Shown: positions 1 through 17,442, counted from the first letter of the stretch. The stretch: DNA of 31,806 nt from an uncultured Lentimicrobiaceae bacterium (GCA_964471715.1 CAYYHC010000002.1:1-31806); one strand, 5' to 3'. Numbers and translations are program-made. The notes: a model not told the origin generated them from the sequence alone.

Positions 1-72
1 TATTGCTACCCGATTTTCGACAATTTCAACTCGATATTATTTAGACTTAATTGATAATAAATATATACAAAA

Positions 73-876
73 ATGAAAACTATTTACAATTCATTAAAAT
101 TAGTTCTTTTTATTTCTCTTCTCATTTCATGTGATAAGAGCGATTCTGAATTGAAATCTTCTTATAGCTATTATAATGAGCCAACTTTTATTAAAAATGG
201 TCTTGTAGGATACTACCCTTTTAATGGAGATTTAAAAGATTATAGTGGCCATGAAAATCATGCGATTGGAACGCCCTCAACTTTTAATTCTGATAGATTT
301 AATAATTCTGCTGGAGCAATTCATTTTAATGGAATGACTGATTTTATAACAATAACTAATTTTAGCAAATCATTAGTCAACAACGAAGGAACAATTATTA
401 TTTGGAGTAAAATAGATACTCCCTATTTAACAAATTATCAGCCTAAATCTGTAGTTTTATCTATTGTTGATTCAGTAAACTCCTGCTTTTTGCTTAGTTA
501 TGGGATGGGAAGTTTAGATTATTCAATTGGTAACTATCCTGGATTAGGCGGAGGTAGTGTAGTTTCAAATATTAATGAAAATGGATTTAAATTATTTGTT
601 GTATCATTTACGGATAATTGCATTACGTTATATGATTTTGAAAATGAAGTATTTCAAAAAGAGACACGAAGTAATCCAAAATATTCTTTTGGATTTAATT
701 GGAATAGGAAGGAACAGGATTTGTATTTAGGTAAAAGTATTATAGATACTTTCGATTCAGGAACATTTGATAACACATTTACATACTTTAAAGGTGATAT
801 AGATGACTTATTGATATATAATCGTATTCTCACGGATGATGAAATAAAGTGCTTTTTTAATTTAGTAAAACAATAG
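73..876 (+). CDS. LamG/concanavalin A-like lectin-domain lipoprotein
   Basis: Lipobox-like LISC; motifs GLVGYYPFNGDLKDYSG and FKGDIDDLLIYNRILTDDEI typical of LamG-like jellyroll domains. Confidence 0.8.
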   Translation: MKTIYNSLKLVLFISLLISCDKSDSELKSSYSYYNEPTFIKNGLVGYYPFNGDLKDYSGHENHAIGTPSTFNSDRFNNSAGAIHFNGMTDFITITNFSKSLVNNEGTIIIWSKIDTPYLTNYQPKSVVLSIVDSVNSCFLLSYGMGSLDYSIGNYPGLGGGSVVSNINENGFKLFVVSFTDNCITLYDFENEVFQKETRSNPKYSFGFNWNRKEQDLYLGKSIIDTFDSGTFDNTFTYFKGDIDDLLIYNRILTDDEIKCFFNLVKQ

Positions 877-905
877 TAAGGATAATTAAGAAAATAAATG
901 ACAAA

Positions 906-992
906 AGCCAACATACGATATAACCAATAAGAGTAGAAGTAGTATGGGAAGGTTTGTAACCGATAAAAAGAAAAAATGGCTACCCGTTAGGG
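906..992 (+). repeat. attC-like site, degenerate or hybrid
   Basis: agccAAC 906-912; right end tggctacccGTTagggcca (977-995) matches the right end of the local repeat family; AT-rich interior does not pair with it. Confidence 0.65.
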
Positions 993-1024
993 CCAATTAA
1001 AGAAACCGCATCAAATAAACTGTC

Positions 1025-1987
1025 ATGAATTTGAAAATGTATTTTTTATTGTTCGTTTTTATATTCTCTCATCAAAATATGGTTGGGATAGAAAAATCGA
1101 CAAATACAGACTATAACAAAAAGATTAATAATATATTTATAAATCTAGATTCAGTAATTTCAAATTCACAACATAAGGATAGAACCGTAGAAGAACACTT
1201 TAGATTTGTATATAAAAAGATAAAAGATGGCGATTTAGTTGTTCGTTTTGATAGTAATCTTGTGTATGATTTTTTTGGTTGTTCCTCTTTTAATGTTTCA
1301 AAAGGTGCTAACCATGATATTGAAATGATATTTGGTAATTATATTATAGATAAATATTTAAAATATCCATACCTGGTTTATGCTATTGTAGTACATACAT
1401 TTCAATACGCCTATGATTATTATAACAATCAATCTTTATTCATGATTAGTACTGAGAATCAAATTGAAAGTATTTTTTTTAAGATGGATGCTATTACAAT
1501 AGAAGCCATGTTCTTGAAGGCCTATAGTTCATACAATAAAAACCTTGGACCATTTGAAAATCTAATAATTGATGATTTTAGTAATGGTTTACCAAGTTCC
1601 TCAGCTCTTTTTTTGAAGACGGATATTCATCTGCTTCATGAAATGGATGCATTAAAGTCAAAGAGTGGCACAAGTAAATCTCTTTTAGACGAATATATGA
1701 ATATGGGTGAAACACTGATTAAGAACTTTAAACTAGAAAATAAAAGTGAATGGGAGAAATATTGTGCCTTGATTACTTTAAGGACATATGTATATTATAG
1801 TAAACAAGTTGTTTTTGATATTGTTTATGCAAAAGATGGTATCACTCAGGAATCATTTAATTTTGATCGATACTCAGATATTAGAACAACAATAGATAGA
1901 ATAATTAATATAATTGAATTGAATGAAGAACTATATAACGTTAAAGATAAAATATTGAAGGCATATAGTGATAAGTACAAGAATTAA
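1025..1987 (+). CDS. Hypothetical protein with probable signal peptide (cassette gene)
   Basis: 320-aa ORF with hydrophobic N-terminus; no recognisable family; bounded by complementary cassette ends. Confidence 0.75.
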   Translation: MNLKMYFLLFVFIFSHQNMVGIEKSTNTDYNKKINNIFINLDSVISNSQHKDRTVEEHFRFVYKKIKDGDLVVRFDSNLVYDFFGCSSFNVSKGANHDIEMIFGNYIIDKYLKYPYLVYAIVVHTFQYAYDYYNNQSLFMISTENQIESIFFKMDAITIEAMFLKAYSSYNKNLGPFENLIIDDFSNGLPSSSALFLKTDIHLLHEMDALKSKSGTSKSLLDEYMNMGETLIKNFKLENKSEWEKYCALITLRTYVYYSKQVVFDIVYAKDGITQESFNFDRYSDIRTTIDRIINIIELNEELYNVKDKILKAYSDKYKN

Positions 1988-1991
1988 CTGG

Positions 1992-2072
1992 CCCTAACAA
2001 CATCTAAACCTCAACCGCCGCTTCGCAGCTAACGCCGCTTGCTGACGGTCGTGGTCTGGATACTCGTTAGGA
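1992..2072 (+). repeat. attC-like recombination site
   Basis: ccctAAC-aacat-ctaaacc...ggtctgg-atactc-GTTagga, 81 bp, begins 5 nt after the stop codon. Confidence 0.85.
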
Positions 2073-2147
2073 GCAACGTTAGAACCAACTTCTTTACATT
2101 TATGCAACATTCATCATTCGCAATTTAAAAATATTCATATCTACAAA

Positions 2148-4721
2148 ATGAAAAAAGTATTCTTTGTAATCATGTTGATTATACTAAAAGCCGTAACGGC
2201 TGCTGCCACCACTCAGGTGCCTGCTGAACTGCGCGGTTACTGGCAATTACCAAACAAGATTGAATCCAAAGATGATTGGGCCGGAATAAACGTGGGTGAA
2301 AACTATGTGGAATTTGTTTACGCATTATTTTCAGTGGACAGCATTCACCAGTCGGATAAAAACTATACACTATTTTTAAACCTCGAGGGAAAGTGGAATG
2401 TTACCATGTCAATTGAGCTTTCGGCAAATGACAGCGCGGCGATTGAACTGAAACAGTATAATATGTCGGAAAGATGCAAACGGTATGACCGCGATCCGGA
2501 AATCAACTTTTTGCCCGTAGCTGATTTTTCGAAGGTGATAGCCGGAAAGCGGTTTGATGATTCCAATACACGTGAATCGTTTGCCATTGAGAAAGGTAAA
2601 TTGCTGTATGATGGCAAACGGTGGAATATTCTCTGGTTGGGAGAAGTTAAGAAGCATCAATACCGCTCAATCATTGAACGTGAAGGGAACTATCGTATGA
2701 TATGGTTTGATAGGCTGGAGGATAATTCATTGAAAGTTAGCTATTATGGAAAGACGTCTTTATACAAACCAAAGGAATCGGGCAGCAAATTGGCCATTGT
2801 GGGCAATTGGTATGAACCAGAAGGCAATGCGTGGGTGTTTGGCTTTTTTGAGAAGTTTGCTATTTACGATGGGAAGTTCTGGGACTATAAAACCCTAAAT
2901 CTTCAAGAATACAAAGGAACGGCTACACTGACAAATGGGAATGAGTCGCTTCAACTGACCTTCCAAAAGAATAAGGACAACACCCTGCAGGTTGTAATCA
3001 ACAATCAGAACGCTGTTACCTATCACTTGGCCGGACGCACGCTTCCACCGTATAAAACGAGCGATACGACTTCTTTTATCGATACGCATTATGCTCGCAT
3101 TGATACAGCCTACATTTCCGGATACTTGCGCTACAAGAAAAGAAAAGAGCCTTTTAAGATAGCTGTTCGCGATCCGATTTCCGACAATGAGGTGTCTTTT
3201 TATGGTAATGTGGATGATTTGGGGCGCTTTGAGATGAAGGTCCCCTTATACAATAGTTCCATGGCTTATTTTGAATGGGGGCAAATGAATGTATTGGAAC
3301 CCAATGAACACTATGTTGTTTTTTACGATGAAATAGGGAAGCAAACGCTGTTTATGGGTAAGAATACCCGCTGCCAAAATGAATTGGCAACAATTGATTT
3401 TTTCAAAATGCCCCAGGGTAATAAGGTCTCCGGTAAAACCACGCTTGATTTTTTAAGTGCTCAAAAAAGTGTTTTTGCCGTGAGAAAAGCATACATGGAT
3501 AGCATTATAAACCAAATGCCCAACCCTTCTTACAAGTTTCGCTATTTTTCAAACAACTATATTCGATACAACATAGCATTTGATCTGATGCAAAGACGTT
3601 TCTTTTTAGATAGAAAGAATCAGGAACAATTTCCCGTTGAATACATGGATTTTGCAAGGGATACCCTGCTTTCCAATCCAATACATCCTGTGACGCTGAA
3701 TCGGGATTTATTAAACTTTATCCGTGATTATGTGGGCTATTACACCGATCAAAAAGGAGCTATTTCCGTCAATACAATTGATGCCCTGCTTTCCTTGATT
3801 AAGTCTGAAAAGATCAAACTGGATGCCTCCGATTATCAACTTGTGGAAACAATTAAGACTGCTATTGGGTTTGAATTAAAAGGGGATACTGTTCAGGCTA
3901 AAAAGGTGGTCGCTAATTTTACACAAAAAGAGATTGATCGATTAAATAACATCACCAACAAGGTTCAAAACAAGAAAGCTATTTCAGCCGAATTGTCCAG
4001 GATGACGTCGGAAATGCGGTTGAAAAGAACGATTGAAGCCTTGCATGAGGAGATTCAGGATAAAAGCATCCGTGATTATTATGTAGCAAAATCACTTTAC
4101 GAAAAATTGAATGGTGACAGAGCTCCCTTGGATTCAAAATTGCTCGACAGTTTATTGGTGCAGGTGGAATCACCGGCTTTCAGGAAGAAAGTGATGGATG
4201 CTCAAACGTTTTATACCGAATTATCCGGGCAAAGTATAGAGCATGTCGAAAGCTTGAAAAACACCGATCATTTGAGCAACGCAAAAAATGCCGATTCGTT
4301 GTGGGTGGAACTAATTCGTCCCTACAAAGGAAAAATTATTTACGTTGATTTCTGGGGTACGTGGTGTGGTCCCTGTAAAAAGGAAATGGAATACGTTGCT
4401 GACTTGAAAAAGCAATTTGTGGGTAAGGATGTTGTCTTTATGTATTTGGCCAACAATTCACCGGAAGTCAGTTGGAAAAATGTCATCAAGGACTATTCGC
4501 TAACGGGCGAGAACGTGGTGCACTATCGGTTGCCTGCAGAGCAACAAACCATGATTGAGCAACGATTTGGAGTCAATGCCTTTCCCACCTATATGATTGT
4601 GGATAGGAATGGGAACATAGTAAACACCGATCCACCAAGTCCAAGCCAAAAACAAGCAACGGTAAGCTTTCTGAACGACTGGTTAGAGAAAAAAAATGAG
4701 AATACTGAAATCAAAAGATAA
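2148..4721 (+). CDS. Large exported protein with C-terminal TlpA/redoxin (thioredoxin-like) domain
   Basis: Signal peptide; VDFWGTWCGPCKKEM CxxC motif; FPTYMIVDRNGNIV cis-Pro loop region. Confidence 0.85.
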   Translation: MKKVFFVIMLIILKAVTAAATTQVPAELRGYWQLPNKIESKDDWAGINVGENYVEFVYALFSVDSIHQSDKNYTLFLNLEGKWNVTMSIELSANDSAAIELKQYNMSERCKRYDRDPEINFLPVADFSKVIAGKRFDDSNTRESFAIEKGKLLYDGKRWNILWLGEVKKHQYRSIIEREGNYRMIWFDRLEDNSLKVSYYGKTSLYKPKESGSKLAIVGNWYEPEGNAWVFGFFEKFAIYDGKFWDYKTLNLQEYKGTATLTNGNESLQLTFQKNKDNTLQVVINNQNAVTYHLAGRTLPPYKTSDTTSFIDTHYARIDTAYISGYLRYKKRKEPFKIAVRDPISDNEVSFYGNVDDLGRFEMKVPLYNSSMAYFEWGQMNVLEPNEHYVVFYDEIGKQTLFMGKNTRCQNELATIDFFKMPQGNKVSGKTTLDFLSAQKSVFAVRKAYMDSIINQMPNPSYKFRYFSNNYIRYNIAFDLMQRRFFLDRKNQEQFPVEYMDFARDTLLSNPIHPVTLNRDLLNFIRDYVGYYTDQKGAISVNTIDALLSLIKSEKIKLDASDYQLVETIKTAIGFELKGDTVQAKKVVANFTQKEIDRLNNITNKVQNKKAISAELSRMTSEMRLKRTIEALHEEIQDKSIRDYYVAKSLYEKLNGDRAPLDSKLLDSLLVQVESPAFRKKVMDAQTFYTELSGQSIEHVESLKNTDHLSNAKNADSLWVELIRPYKGKIIYVDFWGTWCGPCKKEMEYVADLKKQFVGKDVVFMYLANNSPEVSWKNVIKDYSLTGENVVHYRLPAEQQTMIEQRFGVNAFPTYMIVDRNGNIVNTDPPSPSQKQATVSFLNDWLEKKNENTEIKR

Positions 4722-4731
4722 AAAAAGCTGC

Positions 4732-4792
4732 TCCTAACACTACCAAAGCCACATGCGCCTGAAGGAACACGTGGCCTAGCCACCTGTTAGCG
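4732..4792 (+). repeat. attC-like recombination site (short type)
   Basis: tcctAAC-actac-caaagcc...ggcctag-ccacct-GTTagcg, 61 bp; inner stem acatg/cacgt. Confidence 0.85.
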
Positions 4793-4860
4793 AACATTGC
4801 AAGAAAGTTGAAGCAATTGCATACTATCTTATGCTTTTAAAAACAGATAAAAATCAAGCA

Positions 4861-5298
4861 ATGAAAACGAAACTTACATTTGGAATTTTAATCCTGATAA
4901 TATTTATTGGATGCACTTTCAGTTATAATAAGAGTGAAATAAACGGAATTGAAGCCCTAATTGAAGCAGAAGATATTACAAAATCATTTTATGATTATCA
5001 AACAACTGATAGTAAGGATATTTTCAAATTATTTAGTAGCGACTTTTTAAATAGTATAGGAGAAGATAGTTTGCTCGCATACTTAAAACATAAAAAAATA
5101 CTATTGGGGAACCTTAAAAAGGATTCTCTTGAAGAATGGGAAACTAAAATTGTAAAAGGGAAAAACTCTAGCTCTAGTTACTTTTTAAAATATAACAATG
5201 TATATGAGAATAGCCTTGTAACTGAATCTTTTAAAATGAAAAAAGGATTTTTAGGCAAAATAAAGATTATAGACTATAGATATGAGATTAAAAACTAA
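4861..5298 (+). CDS. Hypothetical lipoprotein (cassette gene)
   Basis: MKTKLTFGILILIIFIGC lipoprotein-like signal; alternative start at 4831. Confidence 0.7.
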   Translation: MKTKLTFGILILIIFIGCTFSYNKSEINGIEALIEAEDITKSFYDYQTTDSKDIFKLFSSDFLNSIGEDSLLAYLKHKKILLGNLKKDSLEEWETKIVKGKNSSSSYFLKYNNVYENSLVTESFKMKKGFLGKIKIIDYRYEIKN

Positions 5299-5305
5299 AA
5301 ACGTT

Positions 5306-5386
5306 TGCCAACACCACCCAAACCACAGTCGCCGCTGCGTAGCTAACGCCGCTTGCTGACGGTAGTGGTCTGGATATTCGTTAGCG
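5306..5386 (+). repeat. attC-like recombination site
   Basis: tgccAAC-accac-ccaaacc...ggtctgg-atattc-GTTagcg, 81 bp; core gctaacgccgcttgctgacggt shared with the site at 1992. Confidence 0.85.
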
Positions 5387-5503
5387 GCACGCATAAAACC
5401 GGCAATTCAAAGTTCCATTAATTGTAAAAGGTAGAAATCCAATACCACCAAGAGATTGAATGATAACCACAGTATTAGCTTTTATAATTTAAAACCGAAA
5501 AAC

Positions 5504-5932
5504 ATGAAAAAAGCATTTGTCTTATTAAGTTTGGTGATTGTCTCATTTGCATTATCGGCACAAGTTCATGTTCCCGCCTCCAAATCGATTATTGGAGTAT
5601 GGAGACAAACTGGCGCAATGACTAATACCGGTGAATTAGTTAAAGTGAAATCCGGCAATTATAAGGTTATCAATCCTGATGGTACATCTTACACCATTAT
5701 AACGTGGGGTAATGGTTCTACAACGATAGGCTTTTATGCTACTTGCAAAATGACATCAGATAGTACATGCAAAGAACATATTTTTAAACATGCCAATCCA
5801 GAGATGGATGGAAAAGATGTTGCAATTAGATTTAGATTGATTGATGAAAATAATATGAGAATGGATTGGAATCTTGGTGAAAGATGGATAAATGAGAGCT
5901 GGACGAGATTACAAGTTGGGAATCAGAATTGA
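5504..5932 (+). CDS. Exported protein, DUF4488-like
   Basis: Signal peptide MKKAFVLLSLVIVSFALSAQ; IIGVWRQ...NYKVINPDGT pattern resembles Bacteroidota DUF4488 (family recalled, not searched). Confidence 0.6.
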   Translation: MKKAFVLLSLVIVSFALSAQVHVPASKSIIGVWRQTGAMTNTGELVKVKSGNYKVINPDGTSYTIITWGNGSTTIGFYATCKMTSDSTCKEHIFKHANPEMDGKDVAIRFRLIDENNMRMDWNLGERWINESWTRLQVGNQN

Positions 5933-6020
5933 GTTTATATCAGATAAACATATAAAATGATGTAAGTCAATTGGCTGATAAATAAAAAATGACACCTACT
6001 ACCTTATATAACATTAAACT

Positions 6021-7091
6021 ATGAGAATAATTTTCACAGTGATTTTTATTCTTTCATGTCTAATTTCATTTGGACAAACTTCTGCAATTGACGATTTATG
6101 GAAATTGTACAACTCACAAGATTTAAAATCAGCAATTGAAAAAGCGAAATCACTTCTTGAAAATGACCCCCATAATATTGACTTAAATTTAATAATTGGG
6201 CGTTCATACACAGACCAAACAAATTATAAAAATGCTATTACTTATCTTGAATCGACAGTAAAAAATGATAAAAACAATTCTTGGCGCAAAGCATGGGCAC
6301 TTGAATATTTAGGTACTTGTCATTTCATGCTTCAAGATTATGCCAATTCAAAAAAAACTACTATAGAATGTTTTGATTTAAATGTTACTAAAAATGTAAC
6401 ACAAAATGCGTACAAACAAATCTTATTGTTTGGATTTGACGATTTCTACAAGGATTGGAAAATTGTTGAATCAGATAATTTTAGGTTTCATTTTCAAAAC
6501 ATGAGTGATTCTGATATAAAAAGCTATGTATCATCGCGAGAAGAGACTTTTCAGAATATAAATAAATTCTTTACTAGCAGATTGCCAAAGAAGATTGATT
6601 TCTTCGTTTGGGAATCAAGAGAGGATGCAAAGAACCTGTTAAAAGTCAATTTAGGATTTGCTGACCCTGGATTTTGTATCGTTCATTCTCATTATCAGCA
6701 AACAAGAGGACATGAAATGACCCATGTTATATCAAACTATTCGACCAAGGTTATTACTAAAACTGGATTGATAAATGAAGGTACTGCGGTATGTTTTGAC
6801 CAAACAAATCAAAATAAAGAGCAAATTGTAAAAGATTGGTTAAAAGAAAATGACAAGAAAATCTCAATTGGAGAGATTTGGGACAATTGGAAAAATTATT
6901 CAGAGGAATTAACATATCCGCTTTCTGGATTATTTGTAAAAGAATTGATTGATACATTTGGCAAGGAAAAATTCATCGATTTTTTCAGTAATCAGACTTA
7001 TGAAAATGCGAAAATAGTATTCGGTGCTAATCTTGACAAAATGATTAAAGAGTTTGAAGATAAGATAAATAAAATACTACAGACAACATGA
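6021..7091 (+). CDS. TPR-containing exported protein with zincin-like (HExxH) domain
   Basis: Signal peptide; N-terminal TPR-like helices; GHEMTH followed by INEGTAV. Confidence 0.7.
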   Translation: MRIIFTVIFILSCLISFGQTSAIDDLWKLYNSQDLKSAIEKAKSLLENDPHNIDLNLIIGRSYTDQTNYKNAITYLESTVKNDKNNSWRKAWALEYLGTCHFMLQDYANSKKTTIECFDLNVTKNVTQNAYKQILLFGFDDFYKDWKIVESDNFRFHFQNMSDSDIKSYVSSREETFQNINKFFTSRLPKKIDFFVWESREDAKNLLKVNLGFADPGFCIVHSHYQQTRGHEMTHVISNYSTKVITKTGLINEGTAVCFDQTNQNKEQIVKDWLKENDKKISIGEIWDNWKNYSEELTYPLSGLFVKELIDTFGKEKFIDFFSNQTYENAKIVFGANLDKMIKEFEDKINKILQTT

Positions 7092-8688
7092 TGCGACAGA
7101 TTCAAATTTTAGCATTGCTTTTATTTCTATCCGCTTGTGGGCAAAAAAAAGTAACGATTGAGGCATTAACTACAACAAAAAACGAACTTGAAAAACCCAT
7201 AGGTATTTCTTTTGAGGTGGACAATGTTGAGTTGGCGAATGCTTTGCTTAAAACTGATTCGGCAAGATTTATTTTTGAAAATAAAATTGGCAAAGAAATT
7301 CGTTATTTCCCCGAAGTACAAATTAATGATTGTCTGGTTAATTGTTCCAATAATGGTTTAATTCAAACCATCCAGGAGTGTTATGATAATCATCGCCCAT
7401 TGGTATTAACACCTGATGTAATCTGGTTGGCGATATGTCAAGGCGTTTCGATTCACATTAATGAACAGTATGATTCGCTTGAAAATACAATTTTCAAAGA
7501 ACACAAACCAGATGAAATTATCATTAGAAATGATGACCTGGATAAATCCAATAATTACTGGGGAAAACTGATTGCTTCGTTTGCAAATGAAACAAAGAAG
7601 TACACGCGTGATGATTTTTATTCATTTTTTGTTTCTGAGTTTACAACAACTACTCCAATCATCAAGACTACTTATCAGATTACATTGTTGGAAAGCTATA
7701 AGAAAGCATTTGAATACATTGGTGAATCCGGTTGCGGTATACCATCAATTTGTCTTACTGGAACCAAAGCAGATTGGATAAGTATATACAATAAACTGGA
7801 TATGCTGGATAAAATAGGTCTAGCCAATTGGAAAAAAAATCTAAAACCAATTATCTCAGAATTTATCAGTGCATCTGAAGGACACATAAAAATGCCACTG
7901 AATATAATGCGTTTTATATATCGGGTTGGATTATTAAGTTCTTTCCCTATATAAAAGAGCATGAATCCGATGGTGTATATATTAAAGAGCGTGATGAAAC
8001 CAGATTTGGAGACATTTTTCTTACAAATAAATTTATAGATGATAATGACTATTTACTTTCAACATTATCAACGGACAACTTTCCATCAGGCATAGCAAAG
8101 GTTCCGATCACCTGGAATAATTATTACAAGAAAACAACAATTAAAATGGAGGTTTATGCTGGATTCTTTGCTATAAAACAATATCACGATAAAAGTCTTG
8201 AGCCATTTGTTTCATGGGCAATCTGCGAAAAAAATGCAAAGATTGCCAATCATAGTCTGGTAGAAAATGAAAGTCTAAACTTAAAACATCAACCGGATTA
8301 TTGGTCACCAAATTTTGCATGGAGGTTAACTGATTCTGCTATATATGACGTTAAAAGGTTTAAATCACAAAGCATAAGTCTTGCGTATATAAAATCAAAG
8401 ATTCTTGATTCATTAAGAAGAAATTCACGCTTTAATAGTGCTGAATACAGTAATGATACCATTCAAATTGAAATATTGTCAAATGGTAGGCCTGCAGGGG
8501 TTACAATGTATAAGTCAAAAAATGTGCAATTGTCTAATTATATCAAAGGTTTGATAAAAGGTTTACCCGAACAATGGTTTCCTGCATTAGCACATCCAAC
8601 AGATGTTTTGGATCTGATGGATGCTATTTCAGACGAAGAAAATAAAATAAAAGTAAGAGTAAACAGTATGGTAAAAATTGGATTGTAA
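7088..8688 (+). pseudogene. Frameshifted DUF4419-like lipoprotein
   Basis: LSAC lipobox; NGLIQTIQECYDNHRPLVLTPDVIWLAICQG motif; frame shifts -1 near 7888 and continues KNATEYNAFYISGWIIKFFPY... without a stop into ORF 8146..8688. Confidence 0.75.
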
Positions 8689-8699
8689 GTAAGTACTGG

Positions 8700-8771
8700 C
8701 CCAAGGAACATCTAAACCCCAACCGCCGAAGCGCCTCTTGCTGACGGTAGTGGTCTAGATACTCGTTATAA
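8700..8771 (+). repeat. attC-like site with mutated left core (AAC changed to AGG)
   Basis: tggcccaagg-aacat-ctaaacc...ggtctag-atactc-GTTataa; aligns with the 1992 site; interior shortened. Confidence 0.8.
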
Positions 8772-8774
8772 GCC

Positions 8775-9266
8775 ATGTTAGAGCCCACTATGTTGGTATC
8801 TGCCATTTTAAATCAAAGAAAGTTGTCATATGTACATTTGCCAAACAGTATTTTAGATATTGATGTTTTTGCTTTTTCTATGTGCGAGCAATTGGAATCA
8901 GTACTATTGCCATCGGATTTAGATAGCATATCAGATGCGTTATTTGCCGGATGTCAAAAATTGAAACACGTAAATATTCCAAATGGATTAACGTACATTG
9001 GTCATAAAGCGTTTTTTCTTTGCATGAGTATTGAATCTATTTCGATACCAAAATCAGTAGTTGACTTGAATGGTTGTGCTACATTTCTCGGATGCAAAAG
9101 CTTAAAGAAATTTGTTGTGTCATGGCTACAACCTGTCCAAATTCACCCGCTTATGATTGATGATATTGGTTCAAATCTTTGTGAGTTAGTTGTTCCAAAA
9201 GGTAAGTTGAAAAAATAGAAAGAAGCCAATGGTTGGAAAAATTTTAAAAAGATTGTCGAATCATAA
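8775..9266 (+). pseudogene. BspA-type leucine-rich repeat (LRR_5) protein remnant
   Basis: About four 23-aa repeats (e.g. LKHVNIPNGLTYIGHKAFFLC); in-frame TAG at 9216-9218 interrupts the KK*KEANGWKNFKKIVES tail; no signal peptide. Confidence 0.75.
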
Positions 9267-9280
9267 TCAGAAATCGCTGC

Positions 9281-9360
9281 AGCTAACAACATCTAAACTC
9301 CAACCGCCGCTGCGCAGCTTCACCGCTTGCATACGGCCGGTGTCTGGCTACTCGTTAGCT
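9281..9360 (+). repeat. attC-like recombination site
   Basis: agctAAC-aacat-ctaaact...tgtctgg-ctactc-GTTagct, 80 bp. Confidence 0.85.
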
Positions 9361-9510
9361 CTAATCGTAAAACGCACAGGTCTAGTTTTCTACAATTGAA
9401 TTTGAAAAGAAATGCATTAAGCTTGGTTTGACAAACAGAAATTTCAGAAAAGCGGAGACAATTAAATTTTGGTATTACCTGATACAAACAACTATAAAGA
9501 CTGACAGAAA

Positions 9511-9984
9511 ATGGATTTAATAGGGAAAACAACAATTAACCCACTGTTTTTTTATTCGGGAAAGATTTTGGGTTATATAACGTGGATTGTTCAGTTGCTA
9601 TTAATAATGGGAATGGATGTAATTAACAGATTAACATGCAGATATAATGAATATTTGTCTTTCACGTTGCTTTTTGTAGGATTGGTTTTTATTGTACTTA
9701 GCCTAATAAATTTGGGTCGCTCAACAAGATTGGGACTGCCTACAGATAAGACAGTTTTTAAAACGAATGGTCTCTATAGACTAAGTAGAAATCCAATGTA
9801 TGTTGGGTTTAATCTGTTGACTATATCGTCAATGATTTACACTTTAAACATCTGGATATTAGTGCTAGGGATTTATAGTATAGTTATTTACCATCTGATA
9901 ATTTTGGGAGAGGAACGATTTTTGAAAAACAGATTTGGTGAGCAATATTCAGCCTATTTACTAAAAATTCGGCGATATTTGTAG
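9511..9984 (+). CDS. Isoprenylcysteine carboxyl methyltransferase/PEMT-family membrane protein
   Basis: Several TM segments; GLYRLSRNPMYVG and EERFLKNRFGEQY motifs. Confidence 0.85.
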   Translation: MDLIGKTTINPLFFYSGKILGYITWIVQLLLIMGMDVINRLTCRYNEYLSFTLLFVGLVFIVLSLINLGRSTRLGLPTDKTVFKTNGLYRLSRNPMYVGFNLLTISSMIYTLNIWILVLGIYSIVIYHLIILGEERFLKNRFGEQYSAYLLKIRRYL

Positions 9985-10048
9985 ATAACGTTAGATGACA
10001 AGATTAATTATTTTTGTCCCCATTATCTCAAGATAAAAAAACGACCAG

Positions 10049-10109
10049 GGCTAACAACCGCCTAAGCCATAGCCACCAAAAGTGGATGCGGCCTGGCTAC
10101 CCGTTAGCT
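10049..10109 (+). repeat. attC-like recombination site (short type)
   Basis: ggctAAC-aaccgc-ctaagcc...ggcctgg-ctaccc-GTTagct, 61 bp. Confidence 0.85.
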
Positions 10110-10198
10110 GCCATAGTAACAGTCCGTAACTCATATGAGTTCGATTTATCAACAAAGGATATACAATAATAGAATTTCAGTACAAAATTGAGGATAAT

Positions 10199-10654
10199 AT
10201 GAAAGAAATTAAGAATTTATCTGAAGGCAATTTTCATACAGCTATTGATTTGGGGTTGTTTAGCGAATTATTCGATTATTCGCTGATTCACCCAGTGAGT
10301 AAACGTGAAATTGAAGGTAAGGTTTTTCTAAAAAATGCAACGAAATCAACTGGTACAGAGATATCATTTAATTCCATTCCGCCTAAAACAGAGGTTCCTT
10401 ATTTTCATATACATCGAAAGAATGAGGAAACATATATAATTCTTCAAGGATCCGGATACTTTCAAGTAGATGAGAATTGTTTCAAGATCAAACAGGGAAG
10501 CATTATTAGAGTTTCTCCAGCTGGCAAACGTGGATTGGTAAATACCTCAGATGAGCAGATGATTTATTTAGTAATTCAATCGAAAGAAAATTCACTGGAA
10601 GAATATACCACAGCTGATGGTGAGATGCTTCCTGTTGATCCTAAATGGAGATAA
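10199..10654 (+). CDS. Cupin-domain protein
   Basis: PYFHIHRKNEETYIILQGSGYFQVD (cupin motif 1) and IRVSPAGKRG (motif 2). Confidence 0.85.
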   Translation: MKEIKNLSEGNFHTAIDLGLFSELFDYSLIHPVSKREIEGKVFLKNATKSTGTEISFNSIPPKTEVPYFHIHRKNEETYIILQGSGYFQVDENCFKIKQGSIIRVSPAGKRGLVNTSDEQMIYLVIQSKENSLEEYTTADGEMLPVDPKWR

Positions 10655-10666
10655 ACAAACTACGGC

Positions 10667-10749
10667 AGCAAACACAGCCTAAGCTACAGCATTCACTCAG
10701 TCGAATATGTACCTTCGATTTCGGCCGTTGGCCTAGATACCCGTTATGT
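10667..10749 (+). repeat. attC-like recombination site
   Basis: agcaAAC-acagc-ctaagct...ggcctag-ataccc-GTTatgt, 83 bp. Confidence 0.8.
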
Positions 10750-10770
10750 GGCATTTTAAAATAAAGAAAA

Positions 10771-11526
10771 ATGGCATTCTTTACATTTGAAAACAAGAAA
10801 GTTTATTATAAAGAGATTGGGACAGGAGAGCCGATATTACTTTTAGCCGGAAATACAGCTTCTTCAAAGATGTTTAAATCTATAATTGGAAAATACTCTA
10901 AAGATTTCAAAGTGATTCTGATTGATTTTCCAGGTCATGGAAAATCTGAAAGACTTGAAAAATTTGAAATTGATTTTTGGCATTATAACTCAAGAGTATG
11001 TTATCAGTTGATTGAATTTTTAAAACTTGATAAAATATCAATTATTGGAACAAGTGGAGGTGCATTAGTTGCAATTAATTTAGGGTTAGAAAATCCGGAA
11101 AGGATTAATTATTTAATTGCAGATAGTTTTGAAGGTGAATATCCCTTAGATTCTTATATAGACTCATTAGAAAGTGATAGAGAAAAAGCTAAAAAGAACA
11201 TATTTGCAAAATTATTTTGGTTTTATAATCATGGTTTTGATTGGAAAAAAGTAGTTGATTTGGATACAGAGATGCTGGTTAATTTCTCCAGGCAAGGTAA
11301 GTCATTCTTTCATAAGTCAATTTCTGAATTAACAGTTCCTACTTTATTGTCAGGTAGTAAAGTTGATGAGTATTGCGATTCATTGGATAAAATATATGAA
11401 GCATTGAAATTTAAAAATAATAAACTAGAAATTCATATGTTTGAGAAAGGGAAACATCCAGCAATGCTAACCAATAAGAATGACTTTTATGAAATAGTGA
11501 AAAACAAAATAAAAAACGCAATATAA
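10771..11526 (+). CDS. Alpha/beta-fold hydrolase
   Basis: DFPGHGKS; nucleophile elbow GTSGG; C-terminal GKHP. Confidence 0.85.
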   Translation: MAFFTFENKKVYYKEIGTGEPILLLAGNTASSKMFKSIIGKYSKDFKVILIDFPGHGKSERLEKFEIDFWHYNSRVCYQLIEFLKLDKISIIGTSGGALVAINLGLENPERINYLIADSFEGEYPLDSYIDSLESDREKAKKNIFAKLFWFYNHGFDWKKVVDLDTEMLVNFSRQGKSFFHKSISELTVPTLLSGSKVDEYCDSLDKIYEALKFKNNKLEIHMFEKGKHPAMLTNKNDFYEIVKNKIKNAI

Positions 11527-11567
11527 TTGAAAAGAATTATAAAAAATCTAATAAATAACAAAACCAC

Positions 11568-12146
11568 ATGAAAACACGTGAACTTTATTCTATTGTTTTA
11601 AAGATTATTGGCTTGATATCGTTGTGGCATTTAGTAACCATTTTATTTCCTATATTATTCTCTGGCGTTTTTTTATCTAAAATGTTATTTTCAGCCGTTA
11701 ATTTAGTACCTGTTAGCTATCTGTCAGCATCATTATTTGTCATGATTCTTCAGTTGGCATTGGTGTTAGTTATCTCGATTTATTGTTTGTTTCGTACTGA
11801 AACTCTGCTCAAGGTCTTAAAGTTGAATGATGATTCAACGTTGGAGATATTGTCAGAGAGAAAAGTACTATATCATTTACTTGTATTGTCATTTGGCGTG
11901 TTCTTGTTTGCCGATGGTTTAAACAGTTTTTATACGATAAATACAAAAACAGACACAATAAGTGATATGTCAAAAGCGATGTATACAGTAAATAACACTC
12001 TAAGTATTGTACAAATGACAGAATCAAAGAATTACAGTCTTAATTATTTTGCATTTATTGAGTTATTGATAGGACTAATTCTGTTGATTAAATCTAGAGC
12101 TGTTACAAAATGGATTCTTTGTAGGGTTGATTCGTCCAGTTATTGA
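11568..12146 (+). CDS. Hypothetical membrane protein
   Basis: About four hydrophobic segments. Confidence 0.7.
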   Translation: MKTRELYSIVLKIIGLISLWHLVTILFPILFSGVFLSKMLFSAVNLVPVSYLSASLFVMILQLALVLVISIYCLFRTETLLKVLKLNDDSTLEILSERKVLYHLLVLSFGVFLFADGLNSFYTINTKTDTISDMSKAMYTVNNTLSIVQMTESKNYSLNYFAFIELLIGLILLIKSRAVTKWILCRVDSSSY

Positions 12147-12345
12147 GCAGATTAGAGATCTGTACTTCATGAATTTTGCTGAAAGAGTGACGTCAATTCA
12201 CTTAAAGATTGAGAGTGATACAAACAATATTGTCGATATAAATACCGTAAATGAAAGATTGGATTGTGTGTATAATGATTCGATTCTAGAAATTTATGTT
12301 CAAGATGAAACGTCAGTTACATCATGTTTTAGTGGGGGCAAATAA

Positions 12346-12402
12346 AAGTACATAAATGCTTTTCTTTAATAAAATCAACTGCGCCGTAGCTATAAGTTAT
12401 GC
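12346..12402 (+). repeat. Degenerate attC-like site (only the right core is convincing)
   Basis: GTTatgccg at 12396 complements cggcacAAC at 13315-13323 after the next gene (8/9); left part (gtacataaa) is degenerate. Confidence 0.5.
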
Positions 12403-12431
12403 CGCATACAATCATACCAATATAAATAGAT

Positions 12432-13307
12432 ATGCTTACAGAAAATATTGATAACCAAATCGAGTTTAATCAAGGCAAGAATATTTTTCTTGATCGATTG
12501 GATTTTTTTCAATTTGCAGAAGAAACGGTTAAGGCTATTTCAAATATTGATCAGTTAAATCCAGATTCAAAAGAAACCTTAATTGATTACACTACTGATA
12601 AAGCAATAGAAGAATTTTGTAGGATAAACCAATATTACTCGTTTGACTCAAAGGCAAAAAATGAGTTAAGAAAAATCTACTCTGATTTATTTGGGACTTT
12701 TCAGACAAAGACAGATTCGATTGAAAATATTTCTAAGAATCATTATGAAAAACTAAAAGAGTGGATTAGAGAAAGTAATCCTTTTGCTGAAAAAATTTAT
12801 AAGAATAACAACAAGAATGTTAATCCAATTGCTTGCTCAGAATATAGTCCTGATTTACAAATCAATATATTAAAGATTGATATTGAACATTTAAGGCAAC
12901 CTGTTTTAGATATAGGTTGCGGAAGTCAGGGACATTTAGTTAATTATCTCAAAAATCTAGGGGTTGAAGTTTTTGGTATTGACAGATTTAGGTTTAAAAC
13001 CTTAAATATGAAAACAGTAGATTGGTTGGAATTTGATTATGGAAAGGAAAAGTGGGGGACAATAGTAAGTAACTTAGGTTTTTCCAATCATTTCATTCAC
13101 CATAATTTGAGAGAAGATGGAAACTATATTGAATATGGAAAAACATATATGAATATTTTGAAATCATTGAAAGTTGGTGGATGTTTCCATTATGCACCAG
13201 ATTTGCCATTTATTGAAAAATATCTTGACAATAATCAGTTTGACTTAAAGAAATTCGAGATAAATGAATATGGTTTTAAAACGACGATAATAAAAAGAAT
13301 GAAATAA
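12432..13307 (+). CDS. Class I SAM-dependent methyltransferase
   Basis: VLDIGCGSQG motif I; FGID; LKSLKVGGCF. Confidence 0.8.
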   Translation: MLTENIDNQIEFNQGKNIFLDRLDFFQFAEETVKAISNIDQLNPDSKETLIDYTTDKAIEEFCRINQYYSFDSKAKNELRKIYSDLFGTFQTKTDSIENISKNHYEKLKEWIRESNPFAEKIYKNNNKNVNPIACSEYSPDLQINILKIDIEHLRQPVLDIGCGSQGHLVNYLKNLGVEVFGIDRFRFKTLNMKTVDWLEFDYGKEKWGTIVSNLGFSNHFIHHNLREDGNYIEYGKTYMNILKSLKVGGCFHYAPDLPFIEKYLDNNQFDLKKFEINEYGFKTTIIKRMK

Positions 13308-13316
13308 AGTACGACG

Positions 13317-13350
13317 GCACAACATAGTGTATAAAATATTGGGGTTAATG
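13317..13350 (+). repeat. Truncated attC-like site (left arm only)
   Basis: gcacAAC-atagtgtataaaatattgggg begins 10 nt after the stop codon; no matching right arm follows. Confidence 0.5.
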
Positions 13351-13399
13351 TATTTCAGTTGCCAACATCTACAGTGAATCTTAATTATTCAAAAGAAAT

Positions 13400-13790
13400 C
13401 TGTCCATTTTAACAAGACATATCGATATGGGATATACTTTTGATTATGTTCATGAATGGGATTTGTTAGGTAAATAGTTGACTGACCATTGGACTCGTAT
13501 ATCTAATCCATATGGATTTTATGTCCACGAAGCCAAGTCTGGTGGATATCTTAATTTGGGGACATACTTTTTTTTAGACGAACATCTCATTTGTACCCAA
13601 GTCAAGATTGGATGTTTATCCTAATCTTCGAATGAATGCTGTAAGAAGTTTAATAACTCAGGATTTATAGAGAATTTGCAAAGCAAGATTCTGGTTCATT
13701 GGTTCGTGAAGATGCTTTCAAGCAGCTTATTGATAATGTGTACATTATGAGAGAGCTATCCTTGCGCGCATTTTATAAAATTAGTTGAAG
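13400..13790 (+). pseudogene. Degraded coding remnant, possibly HEAT/leucine-rich-variant repeats
   Basis: Interrupted frames read DVYPNLRMNAVRSLITQDL* and AKQDSGSLVREDAFKQLIDNVYIMREL. Confidence 0.35.
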
Positions 13791-13916
13791 GCTATTTTTT
13801 TGAAAAACGACAATTCTATTTTACGAGAGAAAGGTTGGGTATCGTGGGAAAAACTTCCAGACGAACGTAAAGCAAAAGGAGTCGGATTTACTTATGTTAA
13901 TAAAAAATGATATACG

Positions 13917-14360
13917 ATGAGAATCAAAAAGATTATCGAAAATAAGAAACAATTTCTGGATTTATTGTTGTTGGCAGACGAGCAGGAAAATATGATTGAC
14001 AACTATTTGCCGAGTGGAGAGCTGTTTGCATTATATGACGATGATTTGAAAAGTCTCTGCGTTGTAACACCGATAAATAACGAAAGTTGTGAGTTGAAGA
14101 ATATTGCAACCTACGAGAAATATCAAGGCAAGGGCTACGGTAGAGCATTGATAAGTTTTATTTCTGATTACTACAAAAACACCTACAAAACAATGCTTGT
14201 GGGAACAGGCGAAACGCCTTCAATCTTGTCATTTTACGAAAATTGCGGATTTGAAAAGTCGCATCGGGTAAAGAATTTTTTTACAGACAATTACGATCAT
14301 CCAATGTTTGATGGCGACATCCAACTTATTGATATGATTTATCTAAAAAAGGATTTATAG
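13917..14360 (+). CDS. GNAT-family N-acetyltransferase
   Basis: [21 protein letters not shown] (motif A); FYENCGF. Confidence 0.9.
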
Positions 14361-14386
14361 GAAAGTGGGATGGCAATAAAAACGAA

Positions 14387-14466
14387 GACTAACATTACAT
14401 AAACCCCAGCCGCAGCTACGCAGCTACGCTGCTCGCTGACGGCCGGGGTCTGGCTACTCGTTGTAA
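14387..14466 (+). repeat. attC-like recombination site
   Basis: gactAAC-attac-ataaacc...ggtctgg-ctactc-GTTgtaa, 80 bp; inner stem ccagccg/cggccgg. Confidence 0.85.
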
Positions 14467-14481
14467 CAATGAACTGTGACA

Positions 14482-15405
14482 CTAGAAACGCATAAAGAAA
14501 TCCCACGTTTCTTTGGCAATCCAGTTGACATCAGAACCGGCATCTTTGACGTTTTCCGTATGGCCACCAACGAATGAACCGAACATGACCGGATATTCTG
14601 CAGGAAGACCTTTGAATTCAGTGGTAACATGAGTCGTCTTTGTCGTGGCTAAGGGTATTTCCGGCATTTGTTTCAAGCCATTGTCTTCGATGTGTGTCAA
14701 TACACAGTACTTGCCTCCTTGCTTGCGTTCATCGGAGTTGACATACTTGCAAAGTCCATCTTCGGTACCTGTTGTGCTGAAGAAAGCCAATGGTTTGTGT
14801 TTGTTTTCAGGCAGGTAAATGTTCCAGTTGGCAGGAGCATAACACGCTACAGCACGCAGGTCGTCCTGGAATTCCAATGACAAGGAGTAGGTAAACATGG
14901 CACCAAAGCTGAAACCGCAACTGTAAATGCGGGAAACATCTATGCTCAACTTATCTTTGAACAGTTTAAGCATATCGGCAAAGAAGATGTGGTCTTTGTC
15001 ATCACGCGTACGCCAGGGAGAACCGTCGGTGTACCCCTGAGGTGCCACGAAAATGACAGGTTCATTGCTTTTTTCGGCATAGGTTTTTAACCCATAATAG
15101 TTGTTGTCAACCATTGTTTTCATGCTGCCCCCCATCATGTGCATGGTAAAAATCAAGCGGTATGATTTTTTCTTGTCGTAGTTTGCGGGGATGTCAATGG
15201 TGTATTGGCGTTCAAGTCCGGCACTGGTCATGGTATAAATACCGCTTTTGAAATCACCCAGTTCTTTGCCGTAACCGGCACTGCGAACCGGCGCATTTTT
15301 AAGATTGCGGGCAGCATTGACTGAGTTGACCGTTTGGTGGCTGGCACATCCCGTGAGCGCTAAAATTGAAACTAAAAGGAGAAAGAGTACTACTGTTTTT
15401 TTCAT
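14482..15405 (-). CDS. Secreted esterase lipoprotein (feruloyl esterase/PHB depolymerase-like alpha/beta hydrolase)
   Basis: LTGC lipobox; FTMHMMGG; VAPQG; GFSFG nucleophile; GGHT. Confidence 0.75.
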   Translation of the reverse strand: MKKTVVLFLLLVSILALTGCASHQTVNSVNAARNLKNAPVRSAGYGKELGDFKSGIYTMTSAGLERQYTIDIPANYDKKKSYRLIFTMHMMGGSMKTMVDNNYYGLKTYAEKSNEPVIFVAPQGYTDGSPWRTRDDKDHIFFADMLKLFKDKLSIDVSRIYSCGFSFGAMFTYSLSLEFQDDLRAVACYAPANWNIYLPENKHKPLAFFSTTGTEDGLCKYVNSDERKQGGKYCVLTHIEDNGLKQMPEIPLATTKTTHVTTEFKGLPAEYPVMFGSFVGGHTENVKDAGSDVNWIAKETWDFFMRF

Positions 15406-15698
15406 CGTTCATGATTTAAAAATGATTCTTTGTTTTTTCTTGTTATCTTGTATGTGTTAAACAACTGATGTTCGTTTTTACGGTTTGTCCACTATCCTTG
15501 TTTGGAATGGAAACGAGTAAAGCTGCATATGAATACCAAGCGACTTTCCTTTATTTACAGGGCGAAGATACACATATTTCTGTTTGAGTATATGTCAATA
15601 ACATTTTATATAGATGTTGCCAAGAGCCCTGTCTTTTTACGTCAATATTAATTGTTATGATTTTAAACCAATGCTTCGTTTTTGGTTTACCGAAATCC

Positions 15699-15713
15699 GG
15701 ATACCCGTTAGCA
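15699..15713 (+). repeat. attC-like right-end remnant
   Basis: gg-ataccc-GTTagca matches the family right end (compare tag-ataccc-GTT at 10734); 34 nt upstream of the WYL gene ATG. Confidence 0.5.
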
Positions 15714-15740
15714 ACAATATAACAACCACACACATAGACA

Positions 15741-16439
15741 ATGAATAGAATTGACAGGCTTACAAGCATACTTATACAACTTCAATCCAAACGACTGATA
15801 ACTGCTGGTGAAATAGCTGAACGGTTTGAAGTTACAAACAGGACAATTTACAGAGATATACAAACATTACGGCTTGCAGGTGTTCCAATTGGCGAAGAAG
15901 AAGGAAAAGGTTATTTTCTAGTGGAAGGTTATCGGTTGCCACCTGTAATGTTCACAATGGAAGAAGCGAGAGCTTTGGTAACAACTAGTAAAATTTTAAA
16001 CTACCATACCGAAGATTCTCTTAGACATAATTATGAATCTGCACTTTTGAAAATAAAAGCAGTTTTACCACTCAAAGACAAAGACAAACTGGAATTTTTA
16101 AATGCAAGAATTGGATTTCATGAACCATGGGCACCGACAAGTTTATATTTAGACAGTATCCAGCATGCAATTACCGAAAGCGTAAAACTGAAAATGGCCT
16201 ATCAGACAAGAGGAGAAGATCAACTAAAAGATCGAACCATCCATCCTTATGCTGTTTATTTCAGTGGTGCTGTTTGGACAACCATTGCCTTTTGTGAATT
16301 ACGACAAGAAATAAGAGAGTTTCGCCTTGACAGAATAAAAGAACTAATCGTGCTTCAAGCTCATTTCAAACCCGACAAGACTTTCTGTATTGAACATTAT
16401 TTAGAAGAACGTTCAAAAAGATTATTTTCAAACCCCTGA
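15741..16439 (+). CDS. YafY-family HTH-WYL transcriptional regulator
   Basis: MNRIDRL...AERFEVTNRTIYRDIQTL wHTH; GYFL; WYL-like WTTIAFCELRQEIREFRLDRI. Confidence 0.9.
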   Translation: MNRIDRLTSILIQLQSKRLITAGEIAERFEVTNRTIYRDIQTLRLAGVPIGEEEGKGYFLVEGYRLPPVMFTMEEARALVTTSKILNYHTEDSLRHNYESALLKIKAVLPLKDKDKLEFLNARIGFHEPWAPTSLYLDSIQHAITESVKLKMAYQTRGEDQLKDRTIHPYAVYFSGAVWTTIAFCELRQEIREFRLDRIKELIVLQAHFKPDKTFCIEHYLEERSKRLFSNP

Positions 16440-16452
16440 CAAAGGGCTGTCC
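16437..16452. promoter_or_regulatory. Candidate operator TGACA-N6-TGTCC
   Basis: Near-palindrome overlapping the WYL stop codon, 38 nt upstream of the hydrolase ATG. Confidence 0.4.
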
Positions 16453-16489
16453 TATGTGCCTTTTATTTTTGCTTCAAATTCAAACAAAA

Positions 16490-17380
16490 ATGAAAACAAG
16501 AGTAATTTTATTAATGGTTATTGCTTCACTTTTATCAAATGTAAGCATGGCACAGGCACAAGAAAGAATGATGGCTAAACAAGTTACTATCAGAGACAAA
16601 CAGGTTGAAATCAATTATTTTCAACAAGGGCAAGGTGACACTACACTTCTCTTTTTGCACGGCTGGAGTATTAACGGAACGTATTGGGAGAATCAAGTAG
16701 ACTATTTTTCTAAAAAATACACTGTTTTCGCAATTGACCTGCCGGGCTTTGGCAAATCAAAAGCTGCAAGAACCAACTGGACCATTGAAGAATATGCCAA
16801 TGATGTAACTGCATTTATAGACGCAATGAACCTTACTCATGTTATTATCATTGGACATTCTATGGCAGGCGAAATTATGTTACAAACTGCCTTAACCAAC
16901 AATCCCAAAATAGTTGGCATTGTAGGTGTCGACAATTTCAAGTCCATTGACGTTGTATTACCGCCGGAACAAATGAAACAAATGAACGACTTCTTTCCTC
17001 TGCTTGAAAAGGACTTTAAAAACTCAGCACCTGTTTATGCTGATCTGATGCTTTTTCACCAGACAACGTTAAAGGAAGTCAAAGACAGAGTAAAGACTGA
17101 TTTTGCGAACAGCGATCCCATCATTGGTTATGGCACAATTATTACCCAAATGCAATACTCATATAACGATGCACAAAGGCTGGAGCAGCTCAATTACAAA
17201 TTATATTTGATAAACAGTGACGGTATTCCAACAAACGAAACCGGTCTTAAAAACCATTGTAAAAATGGCTTTCAAGTGGAAACCATCTCTGCGACCGGAC
17301 ATTTTCCAATGATAGAAAAACCGTCAGAATTTAATTTAAAATTAGAAAAGGTGCTGACGAGTATTTATATATTTTTATGA
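16490..17380 (+). CDS. Exported alpha/beta hydrolase
   Basis: Signal peptide; FLHGW, DLPGFGKS, GHSMA, GHFP. Confidence 0.85.
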   Translation: MKTRVILLMVIASLLSNVSMAQAQERMMAKQVTIRDKQVEINYFQQGQGDTTLLFLHGWSINGTYWENQVDYFSKKYTVFAIDLPGFGKSKAARTNWTIEEYANDVTAFIDAMNLTHVIIIGHSMAGEIMLQTALTNNPKIVGIVGVDNFKSIDVVLPPEQMKQMNDFFPLLEKDFKNSAPVYADLMLFHQTTLKEVKDRVKTDFANSDPIIGYGTIITQMQYSYNDAQRLEQLNYKLYLINSDGIPTNETGLKNHCKNGFQVETISATGHFPMIEKPSEFNLKLEKVLTSIYIFL

Positions 17381-17442
17381 TTTATAAAATAAGAAAGAAG
17401 CATAATTAGTAGATATTTGCAATACATAAAAAAAAATTGTTG

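Follow-up and report, generated by a model that had tools for sequence, protein, structure and literature searches.

The contig CAYYHC010000002.1 of an uncultured Lentimicrobiaceae bacterium (GCA_964471715.1), which was analyzed over its entire length of 31,806 nucleotides (nt) and is referred to below as the window, carries an array of genes of unrelated function separated by eight repeats. These repeats are genuine attC-type cassette recombination sites, with exchange between the G and the TT of the R' box (hereafter G↓TT), but they lack the bulged base in the L'' box that is present in canonical attC. We consider it likely that they are attC-type sites that fold as single strands and belong to a Bacteroidales variant of the integron. 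The broader proposition, that this variant is a second kind of integron in Bacteroidales, with an integrase that has three HARP-like domains binding structured DNA and no additional domain, with bulge-free attC sites, and with strand choice via T.G wobbles present only on the bottom strand, appears to us evenly balanced.

The original prediction, made from the window sequence, described seven-base L boxes on both arms of each repeat, an invariant A opposite C at the center of the L box, and spacers of 5 nt (once 6 nt) on the left and 6 nt on the right. All eight pairs of L'' and L' strings are found in the sequence exactly as quoted (Table 1), and the spacers are as claimed, site 6 being the only site in the window with a 6-nt left spacer. 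Inverted repeats of the R''(...AAC)/R'(GTT...) type are present in seven of the sites; in site 4, which ends a 3.3-kb block of four genes, R'' is degenerate (CCCAAGG, with no AAC). A covariance model based on these sites (hereafter R1) finds all eight in the window with scores of 49-95 bits (E 3e-13 to 5e-28); apart from antisense reads of the same sites, there is no match in the window better than E ~0.5. The eight-site observation is confirmed and is not due to chance. Folding of both strands, as the prediction had proposed, gives a more stable bottom strand in each of the eight sites (for example, -15.0 vs -8.0 kcal/mol for the top strand in site 1, -10.5 vs -6.3 in site 2, -15.7 vs -10.9 in site 3, and -20.6 vs -17.4 in site 8), and in site 3 the L box of the bottom strand is fully paired, with a central G.T. 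The GTTGTAA/GTTGTAT ending seen in site 8 also occurs at sites in the loci L124, L095, L021, and L141.

In integrons, the crossover point separates the G of R' from the TT. Whatever follows the G is therefore part of the next cassette, and is expected to pair with the left end of the site that closes it. This is indeed what we observed. In 53 distinct pairs of consecutive sites from the wider family, the 8 nt that follow GTT pair, on average, at 6.3 of 8 positions with the R'' side of the next site, compared to 3.7 with the R'' side of their own site and 3.3 with that of a random site. Pairing with the next site is the better one in 45 pairs and pairing with the own site in 4 (Wilcoxon p = 1e-8). 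Within the window, the next site wins in the steps from the first half-site to site 1, from 1 to 2, from 2 to 3, and from 6 to 7, and the step from 5 to 6 is a tie at 5/8. In the half-site at 978-991, the sequence that follows the G, TTAGGGCC, is exactly complementary to GGCCCTAA within the R'' of site 1. Because the bases after the exchange point match the left end of the next site rather than that of their own, the repeats are genuine attC-type sites. The hairpin arms covary as well: both sides change in 15 of 21 pairs, with a score of 0.265 vs 0.106 for shuffled and at most 0.067 for slid controls, and, for instance, L2 alternates between UA and CG (82/41) and L5 between GC and AU (54/53).

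A pattern scan of public collections, in which the L-box center was left free and an L'' of 7 or 8 nt was allowed, yielded homologous sites in three Bacteroidales genomes and 88 metagenome contigs. On these contigs, R1 identifies 352 sites, with more than 15 in some arrays. The 144 distinct homologous sites discussed below come from Bacteroidales genomes and metagenomes other than that of the window. No R1 matches were found in 60 related genomes, so that close kin offered nothing for comparison. A pattern match in L017 (Bryobacterales) was taken as chance given that R1 found nothing in that genome. Across the family, the pairs R5-R7 are essentially invariant, the L box is strongly conserved (CYAARCC), and the left spacer is 5 nt long in 140 of 148 sites; the 5-nt and 6-nt spacers show no conserved complementarity.

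The extrahelical base of L'' has been described as conserved in all attC sites, and as 'absolutely conserved' (PMC2727003), and IntI1 and VchIntIA reportedly do not support attC x attC recombination when the extrahelical bases are missing (PMC2727003; PMC5027507). The prediction that the window sites have no such base holds for the entire family: in the register without a bulge, every one of the 13 stem positions (L1 to S6) is paired on the bottom strand. As a control, we used the aadA1 attC (sequence from R100; a 60-nt query is 100% identical in >1,900 plasmid records), which under the same folding script shows a bulged G in L'' and nearly equal energies of the two strands (top -18.3, bottom -18.8 kcal/mol), and scores only 14.5 bits under R1. 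The central A of the family L'' lies exactly at the place of the canonical extra base, that is, the 5-nt spacer plus 3 nt away from AAC; what differs at this place is that the L' arm supplies an additional partner. Since the position that is unpartnered in canonical sites has a partner on the other arm, nothing is bulged, and the absence of the L'' bulge is real across the family. An L-box register with a bulged base was also tried and rejected, because the six stem pairs that come next then no longer line up.

The A/C pair at the center of the L box (L4), found in all eight window sites, is not invariant elsewhere: among the 144 sites, the center is A/C in 103 (72%), A-T in 38 (26%), and another combination in 3, and the share of A-T is probably underestimated because the model used to rank the site set had been trained on A/C. 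The same pattern (top-strand A.C, bottom-strand T.G) recurs at the first and third pairs past the L box (S1 and S3), in 98 and 133 sites, respectively. Overall, there are 403 G.T pairs in the bottom and 58 in the top strand, vs 313 and 658 mismatches, respectively, with the G.T pairs clustered at L4, S1, and S3. Thus, three positions that are A.C on the top strand become T.G wobbles on the bottom strand, which therefore folds much better: with DNA energy parameters, it is the more stable strand in 144 of 144 sites, by 7.5 kcal/mol on average. The A/C pair is best read as a paired wobble that can be swapped with T-A and, like those at S1 and S3, biases folding by working against a folded top strand, not as a fixed mismatch code.

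The original prediction saw in the A/C pair an invariant mismatch standing in for the bulge, and suggested that a divergent recombinase may read a different structural code. A fixed code of this kind would account for the ubiquity of A/C in the window and its prevalence in the family, for its location exactly where the comparison with aadA1 places the extrahelical base, and for the choice of a T.G wobble, which opens more easily than a Watson-Crick pair. Nevertheless, we regard it as unlikely. A plain A-T takes its place in more than a quarter of the sites, even alongside A/C within one array (genome G064); the A.C is shifted to position 5 in nine sites (CTAAACC/GGCTTAG); S1 and S3 show the same pattern, S3 more often than the L-box center itself; and the central T is paired with the L' center in 130 of the 144 minimum-energy folds of the bottom strand.

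There is no recombinase gene within the window. In four related arrays, however, the gene at the array head encodes an IntI-like tyrosine recombinase of 450-630 amino acids that is co-oriented with the cassettes. An arrangement resembling an integron platform, with an integrase-like gene, a putative adjacent attI, and a cassette array at one locus, is seen in L045, L088, L138, and L141, but not on the contig analyzed here. In L088, an attI-like motif, ...ACTTCGTATA...G↓TTAGGCC, lies 445 nt past the stop codon of the recombinase gene, and its TT side matches the R'' of the first cassette; a similar motif also follows the L140 gene. Upstream of the array-head recombinases, there are housekeeping genes that differ between genomes; downstream are small, varied, co-oriented genes including restriction-modification and toxin-antitoxin genes.

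By sequence, the closest solved relative of the array-head recombinase is VchIntIA (E 3e-38), and its core, with 34% identity to IntI1, is closer to IntI than to Xer proteins. The alignment has a 43-residue gap against IntI1 residues ~203-252, where the array-head recombinase has 20 residues vs 63 in VchIntIA; the missing stretch is the additional domain of IntI, with the residues listed as contacts of the two extrahelical bases (PMC3053210). The enzymes score 212 and 210 bits on TIGR02249 (cut-off 265); on NF040815 (cut-off 220), a point of similarity to Xer recombinases, the score is 218.5 bits. We found no recombinases with the IntI insert in ~100 fetched loci, and nothing above the TIGR02249 cut-off in four genomes that carry sites. 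The divergent recombinase anticipated in the original prediction is thus borne out, insofar as related arrays are headed by an IntI-like enzyme devoid of the domain that binds extrahelical bases. The family to which it belongs has thousands of members in public data, and a published classification describes the IntI insertion as 'not fully conserved' in its integron-like subgroup (PMC8138268). The genome of the window encodes, on contig 12, a recombinase paralogue of 280 amino acids without the N-terminal domains. On contig 202 of the same genome (G000 contig C202:340-831), there is a truncated remnant that shares 51% identity with the last 155 residues of the array-head recombinase, with an in-frame stop in the upstream part of the match.

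The N-terminal extension of the array-head recombinase is conserved and comprises three HARP-like domains. The Pfam HARP profile is above the cut-off in three homologues (up to 32 bits vs a cut-off of 25). The AlphaFold model of the extension (predicted local distance difference test score, pLDDT, 86) contains three bbabba repeats, and single repeats match the N-terminal domain of T4 UvsW, the damage-recognition domain of XPB, and the HARP domain of SMARCAL1 with Z of 4.2-6.2 in an exhaustive aligner; a Foldseek search of this model against the Protein Data Bank returned nothing below E 0.001. The HARP, UvsW N-terminal, and XPB damage-recognition domains bind branched DNA or junctions of single- and double-stranded DNA.

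Several loci with homologues of the array-head recombinase have features of their own. In L140 (14236-19620), a 59%-identical homologue is followed by small co-oriented genes, including a NotI-like restriction-modification pair and a Gp49/HTH pair, between which lie four copies of another repeat, ~190 nt long, instead of hairpins of the window site family. In L142 (12931-21596), three copies of a group II intron open reading frame (ORF) with the RVT_1 and GIIM domains lie antisense between cassettes downstream of another homologue, and the only matches to the model are minimal sites of 31-36 nt (for example, 14869-14899). A truncated array-head recombinase in L068 adjoins three consecutive tyrosine recombinase genes (a recombinase-in-trio, 1177-4409), the place of which is taken in L100 by an IS21-like gene pair.

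Taken together, these observations suggest how the system might work. Each site is a hairpin composed of the R box, an asymmetric unpaired spacer (5/6 nt), the 7-bp L box, and a further stem. Strand-asymmetric wobbles cannot matter in duplex DNA, hence we infer that the recombination substrate is the folded, single-stranded bottom strand. The choice of the strand would be set by the wobble-driven asymmetry of folding together with the asymmetry of the spacers, without extrahelical bases docking in pockets of the integrase. The HARP-like domains and the conserved L box might supply the recognition that is otherwise provided by the additional domain, and the array in the window would be served by a HARP-type recombinase encoded elsewhere than on this contig.

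The alternative is an ordinary integron with a lineage-specific form of attC, the canonical IntI of which escaped assembly, the recombinase next to the related arrays being an unrelated enzyme of the Xer type. The sites are canonical in their R boxes, G↓TT crossover, 5/6 spacers, and bottom-strand folding, the genomes involved are incomplete metagenome bins, and IntI1 tolerates the loss of extrahelical bases at some sites, where they are dispensable in attI x attC reactions (PMC5027507). We nevertheless deem this explanation improbable, slightly more so than a fixed A/C code. Neither the genomes that carry sites nor the fetched loci yielded an integrase with the insert, as described above, whereas an insert-less recombinase lies directly at the array head, co-oriented with the cassettes, in several independent genomes and at different chromosomal places. 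Furthermore, this enzyme is closer to IntI than to Xer by sequence, and is followed by a conserved attI-like motif (G↓TTAG) with a TT side that matches the R'' of the first cassette. The possibility that the repeats are intergenic palindromes unrelated to recombination, such as terminators or REP-like elements, and cluster here only by chance could draw on the presence of GC-rich hairpins just past stop codons and on the lack of a recombinase in the window, but is barely credible, given the cross-cassette complementarity at G↓TT that terminators do not explain, the absence of sites from the 60 related genomes, the cassette shared with another array in a different context, and the arrays headed by a recombinase, some of them with group II introns.

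Several points weigh against the interpretation that we favor, single-strand-folding sites of an integron variant. No recombination was observed: contig-level mapping of reads from four public runs produced only short-sided joints inside the repeats, and the candidate excision joints (5332/5333 to 9334, 10088, and 14440), with sides of 23-26 nt that lie inside repeats, were attributed to cross-mapping between site copies and not counted as evidence of excision. The model to which the family alignments were fitted had itself been trained on the sites in the window. The genome of the window, at 84% completeness, contains neither a canonical IntI nor a full-length HARP-type recombinase, and the tolerance of IntI1 mentioned above makes the action of a canonical integrase on the family sites biochemically possible. 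The linkage between recombinase and sites comes from four intact cases and three remnant loci, the latter probably being one element, and distant homologues head arrays with other repeats (L140) or minimal sites (L142). Finally, the matches to HARP-like folds, all below Z 8, are modest and serve as support only.

In integron biology, the extrahelical bases of attC and the additional domain of IntI that binds them are treated as defining. If our interpretation is correct, cassette exchange at G↓TT occurs without either, so that both would be dispensable, and these arrays would provide a natural test case for strand choice by folding energy alone. Such platforms would then go uncounted as complete integrons in surveys whose definition of the integrase relies on the additional domain, and which report almost no integrons in Bacteroidetes (PMC9024848). 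In the literature, our coverage of which was incomplete, we found neither attC arrays of Bacteroidales nor recombinases fused to HARP domains described, although an earlier description is possible.

Table 1. Sites, array boundaries, and recombinase genes; starts of L'' and L' are in parentheses, the arrow marks the exchange point
Feature	Location	Strand	Left arm	Right arm	R1 score (bits)	Remarks
Cassette array	986..14466	+				same-strand ORFs of unrelated function, split by eight sites
Half-site	978..991	+		GGCTACCCG↓TTAGG		left boundary of first cassette; family right-arm spacer and R', without L''/R'' arm
Site 1	1992..2072	+	R'' CCCTAAC, L'' CTAAACC (2004)	L' GGTCTGG (2053), R' GTTAGGA	94.6	
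Site 2	4732..4792	+	L'' CAAAGCC (4744)	L' GGCCTAG (4773)	52.8	short form
Site 3	5306..5386	+	L'' CCAAACC (5318)	L' GGTCTGG (5367)	89	
Site 4	8700..8771	+	L'' CTAAACC (8712)	L' GGTCTAG (8752)	61.9	
Site 5	9281..9360	+	L'' CTAAACT (9293)	L' TGTCTGG (9341)	89.5	
Site 6	10049..10109	+	L'' CTAAGCC (10062)	L' GGCCTGG (10090)	49	short form
Site 7	10667..10749	+	L'' CTAAGCT (10679)	L' GGCCTAG (10730)	64.1	
Site 8	14387..14466	+	L'' ATAAACC (14399)	L' GGTCTGG (14447), R' GTTGTAA	84.2	last of the array
Second half-site	15699..15712	+		GGATACCCG↓TTAGC		upstream of WYL-regulator and hydrolase genes
Array-head recombinase	G064 contig 6					2.2 kb before first detected site; HigB/HigA-type cassette between
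Array-head recombinase	L138					
Array-head recombinase	L088					contig end overlaps array L095, nearest relative of the window array
Array-head recombinase	L141					
C-terminal recombinase remnants	L068, L092, L100					0.55 kb upstream of site

The bin to which the contig belongs is Bacteroidales-like and fragmented (2.15 Mb in 253 contigs, 84% complete, 38% G+C). A single ORF or an ORF block precedes each of the eight repeats in the window; the functions are unrelated, and the products include a redoxin, DUF4488, TPR/peptidase, DUF4419, LRR_5, PEMT, cupin, hydrolase, and GNAT proteins, among others. One of the cassettes (11526-12133) is 90% identical to a cassette located between two sites in the metagenome array L095. 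Two multi-gene blocks, 10749-14387 (3.6 kb) and 5386-8700 (3.3 kb), contain no detectable internal sites. The homologue of the ORF at 11568-12146 is a separate cassette in L095, so sites seem to have been lost from the block in the window. A non-coding stretch of 610 nt is found at 13307-13917. Exact pieces of several cassettes from positions 1-16000 are present in wastewater metagenomes from a study and year other than those of the best-matching bioreactor run; their coverage is patchy, as expected if the cassette content varies between populations. A scan of the window against Rfam revealed no family reaching the gathering score.

Next to the last site, the ORF at 14482-15405 on the minus strand was considered as an integrase by virtue of its position and was ruled out, as its product is alpha/beta-hydrolase-like. 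The second half-site is followed by genes for a WYL/HTH regulator and an alpha/beta hydrolase (15741-17380). The latter gene shows 79% DNA identity to a gene in G043, the genome of a member of another family, which suggests that it, too, was acquired horizontally. In the metagenome relative L076, a signal peptidase gene 79% identical to that in the window (17437-18864) has a family site ~1 kb upstream, so that the position of the array beside lepB may be conserved. Farther along, the ORF at 23187-23891 contains six tandem 63-nt units (23298-23752) that encode a protein repeat of 21 residues.

Compared with canonical attC (the 59-base elements of aadA1 and aadA7 and the VCR), the family sites share R'' ending in AAC and R' starting with GTT, the G↓TT crossover, the unpaired spacers of 5 and 6 nt, the L boxes followed by a variable stem-loop, the preference for bottom-strand folding, and the presence of a single site behind each cassette. 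Unlike the canonical sites, they have no unpartnered base in L'' but rather T.G or T-A at this place on the bottom strand. Their strongly conserved L box does not mirror the R box (there is no GTT-like 2L box), whereas the 2L box of aadA1, GTTCAAGC, does, and the energy gap between the strands is ~7.5 kcal/mol vs 0.5 in aadA1. With IntI1 and VchIntIA (TIGR02249), the array-head recombinase has in common the similarity of the core and the location of the gene beside an attI-like site and a cassette array. In contrast to these integrases, it lacks the ~43-residue additional domain (alpha-I2 and beta-4,5), carries three extra HARP-like domains at the N-terminus, and is co-oriented with the cassettes instead of divergent from them.

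The core length and the architecture without the IntI insert are shared with Xer recombinases (XerA and XerC/D, which act at dif sites), and the alignment with XerA is unbroken. However, Xer proteins have no N-terminal HARP-like domains, and the array-head recombinase heads variable cassette arrays instead of lying at a dif-like site; unlike Xer sites, the family sites are long hairpins with strand-asymmetric wobbles that make sense only for single-stranded DNA. The HARP-like repeats resemble the domains of SMARCAL1, T4 UvsW, and XPB but are fused here to a tyrosine recombinase. As in the arrays described in 2016 (PMC4889954), the window contains eight attC-type sites and no integrase within the contig; the contig starts ~1 kb before the first boundary, so that the array head may simply be missing, and, unlike those arrays, the related ones are headed by a recombinase that is not a canonical IntI. 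With classical integrons, the related arrays share cassettes that encode restriction-modification and toxin-antitoxin systems as well as antisense group II introns (L142).

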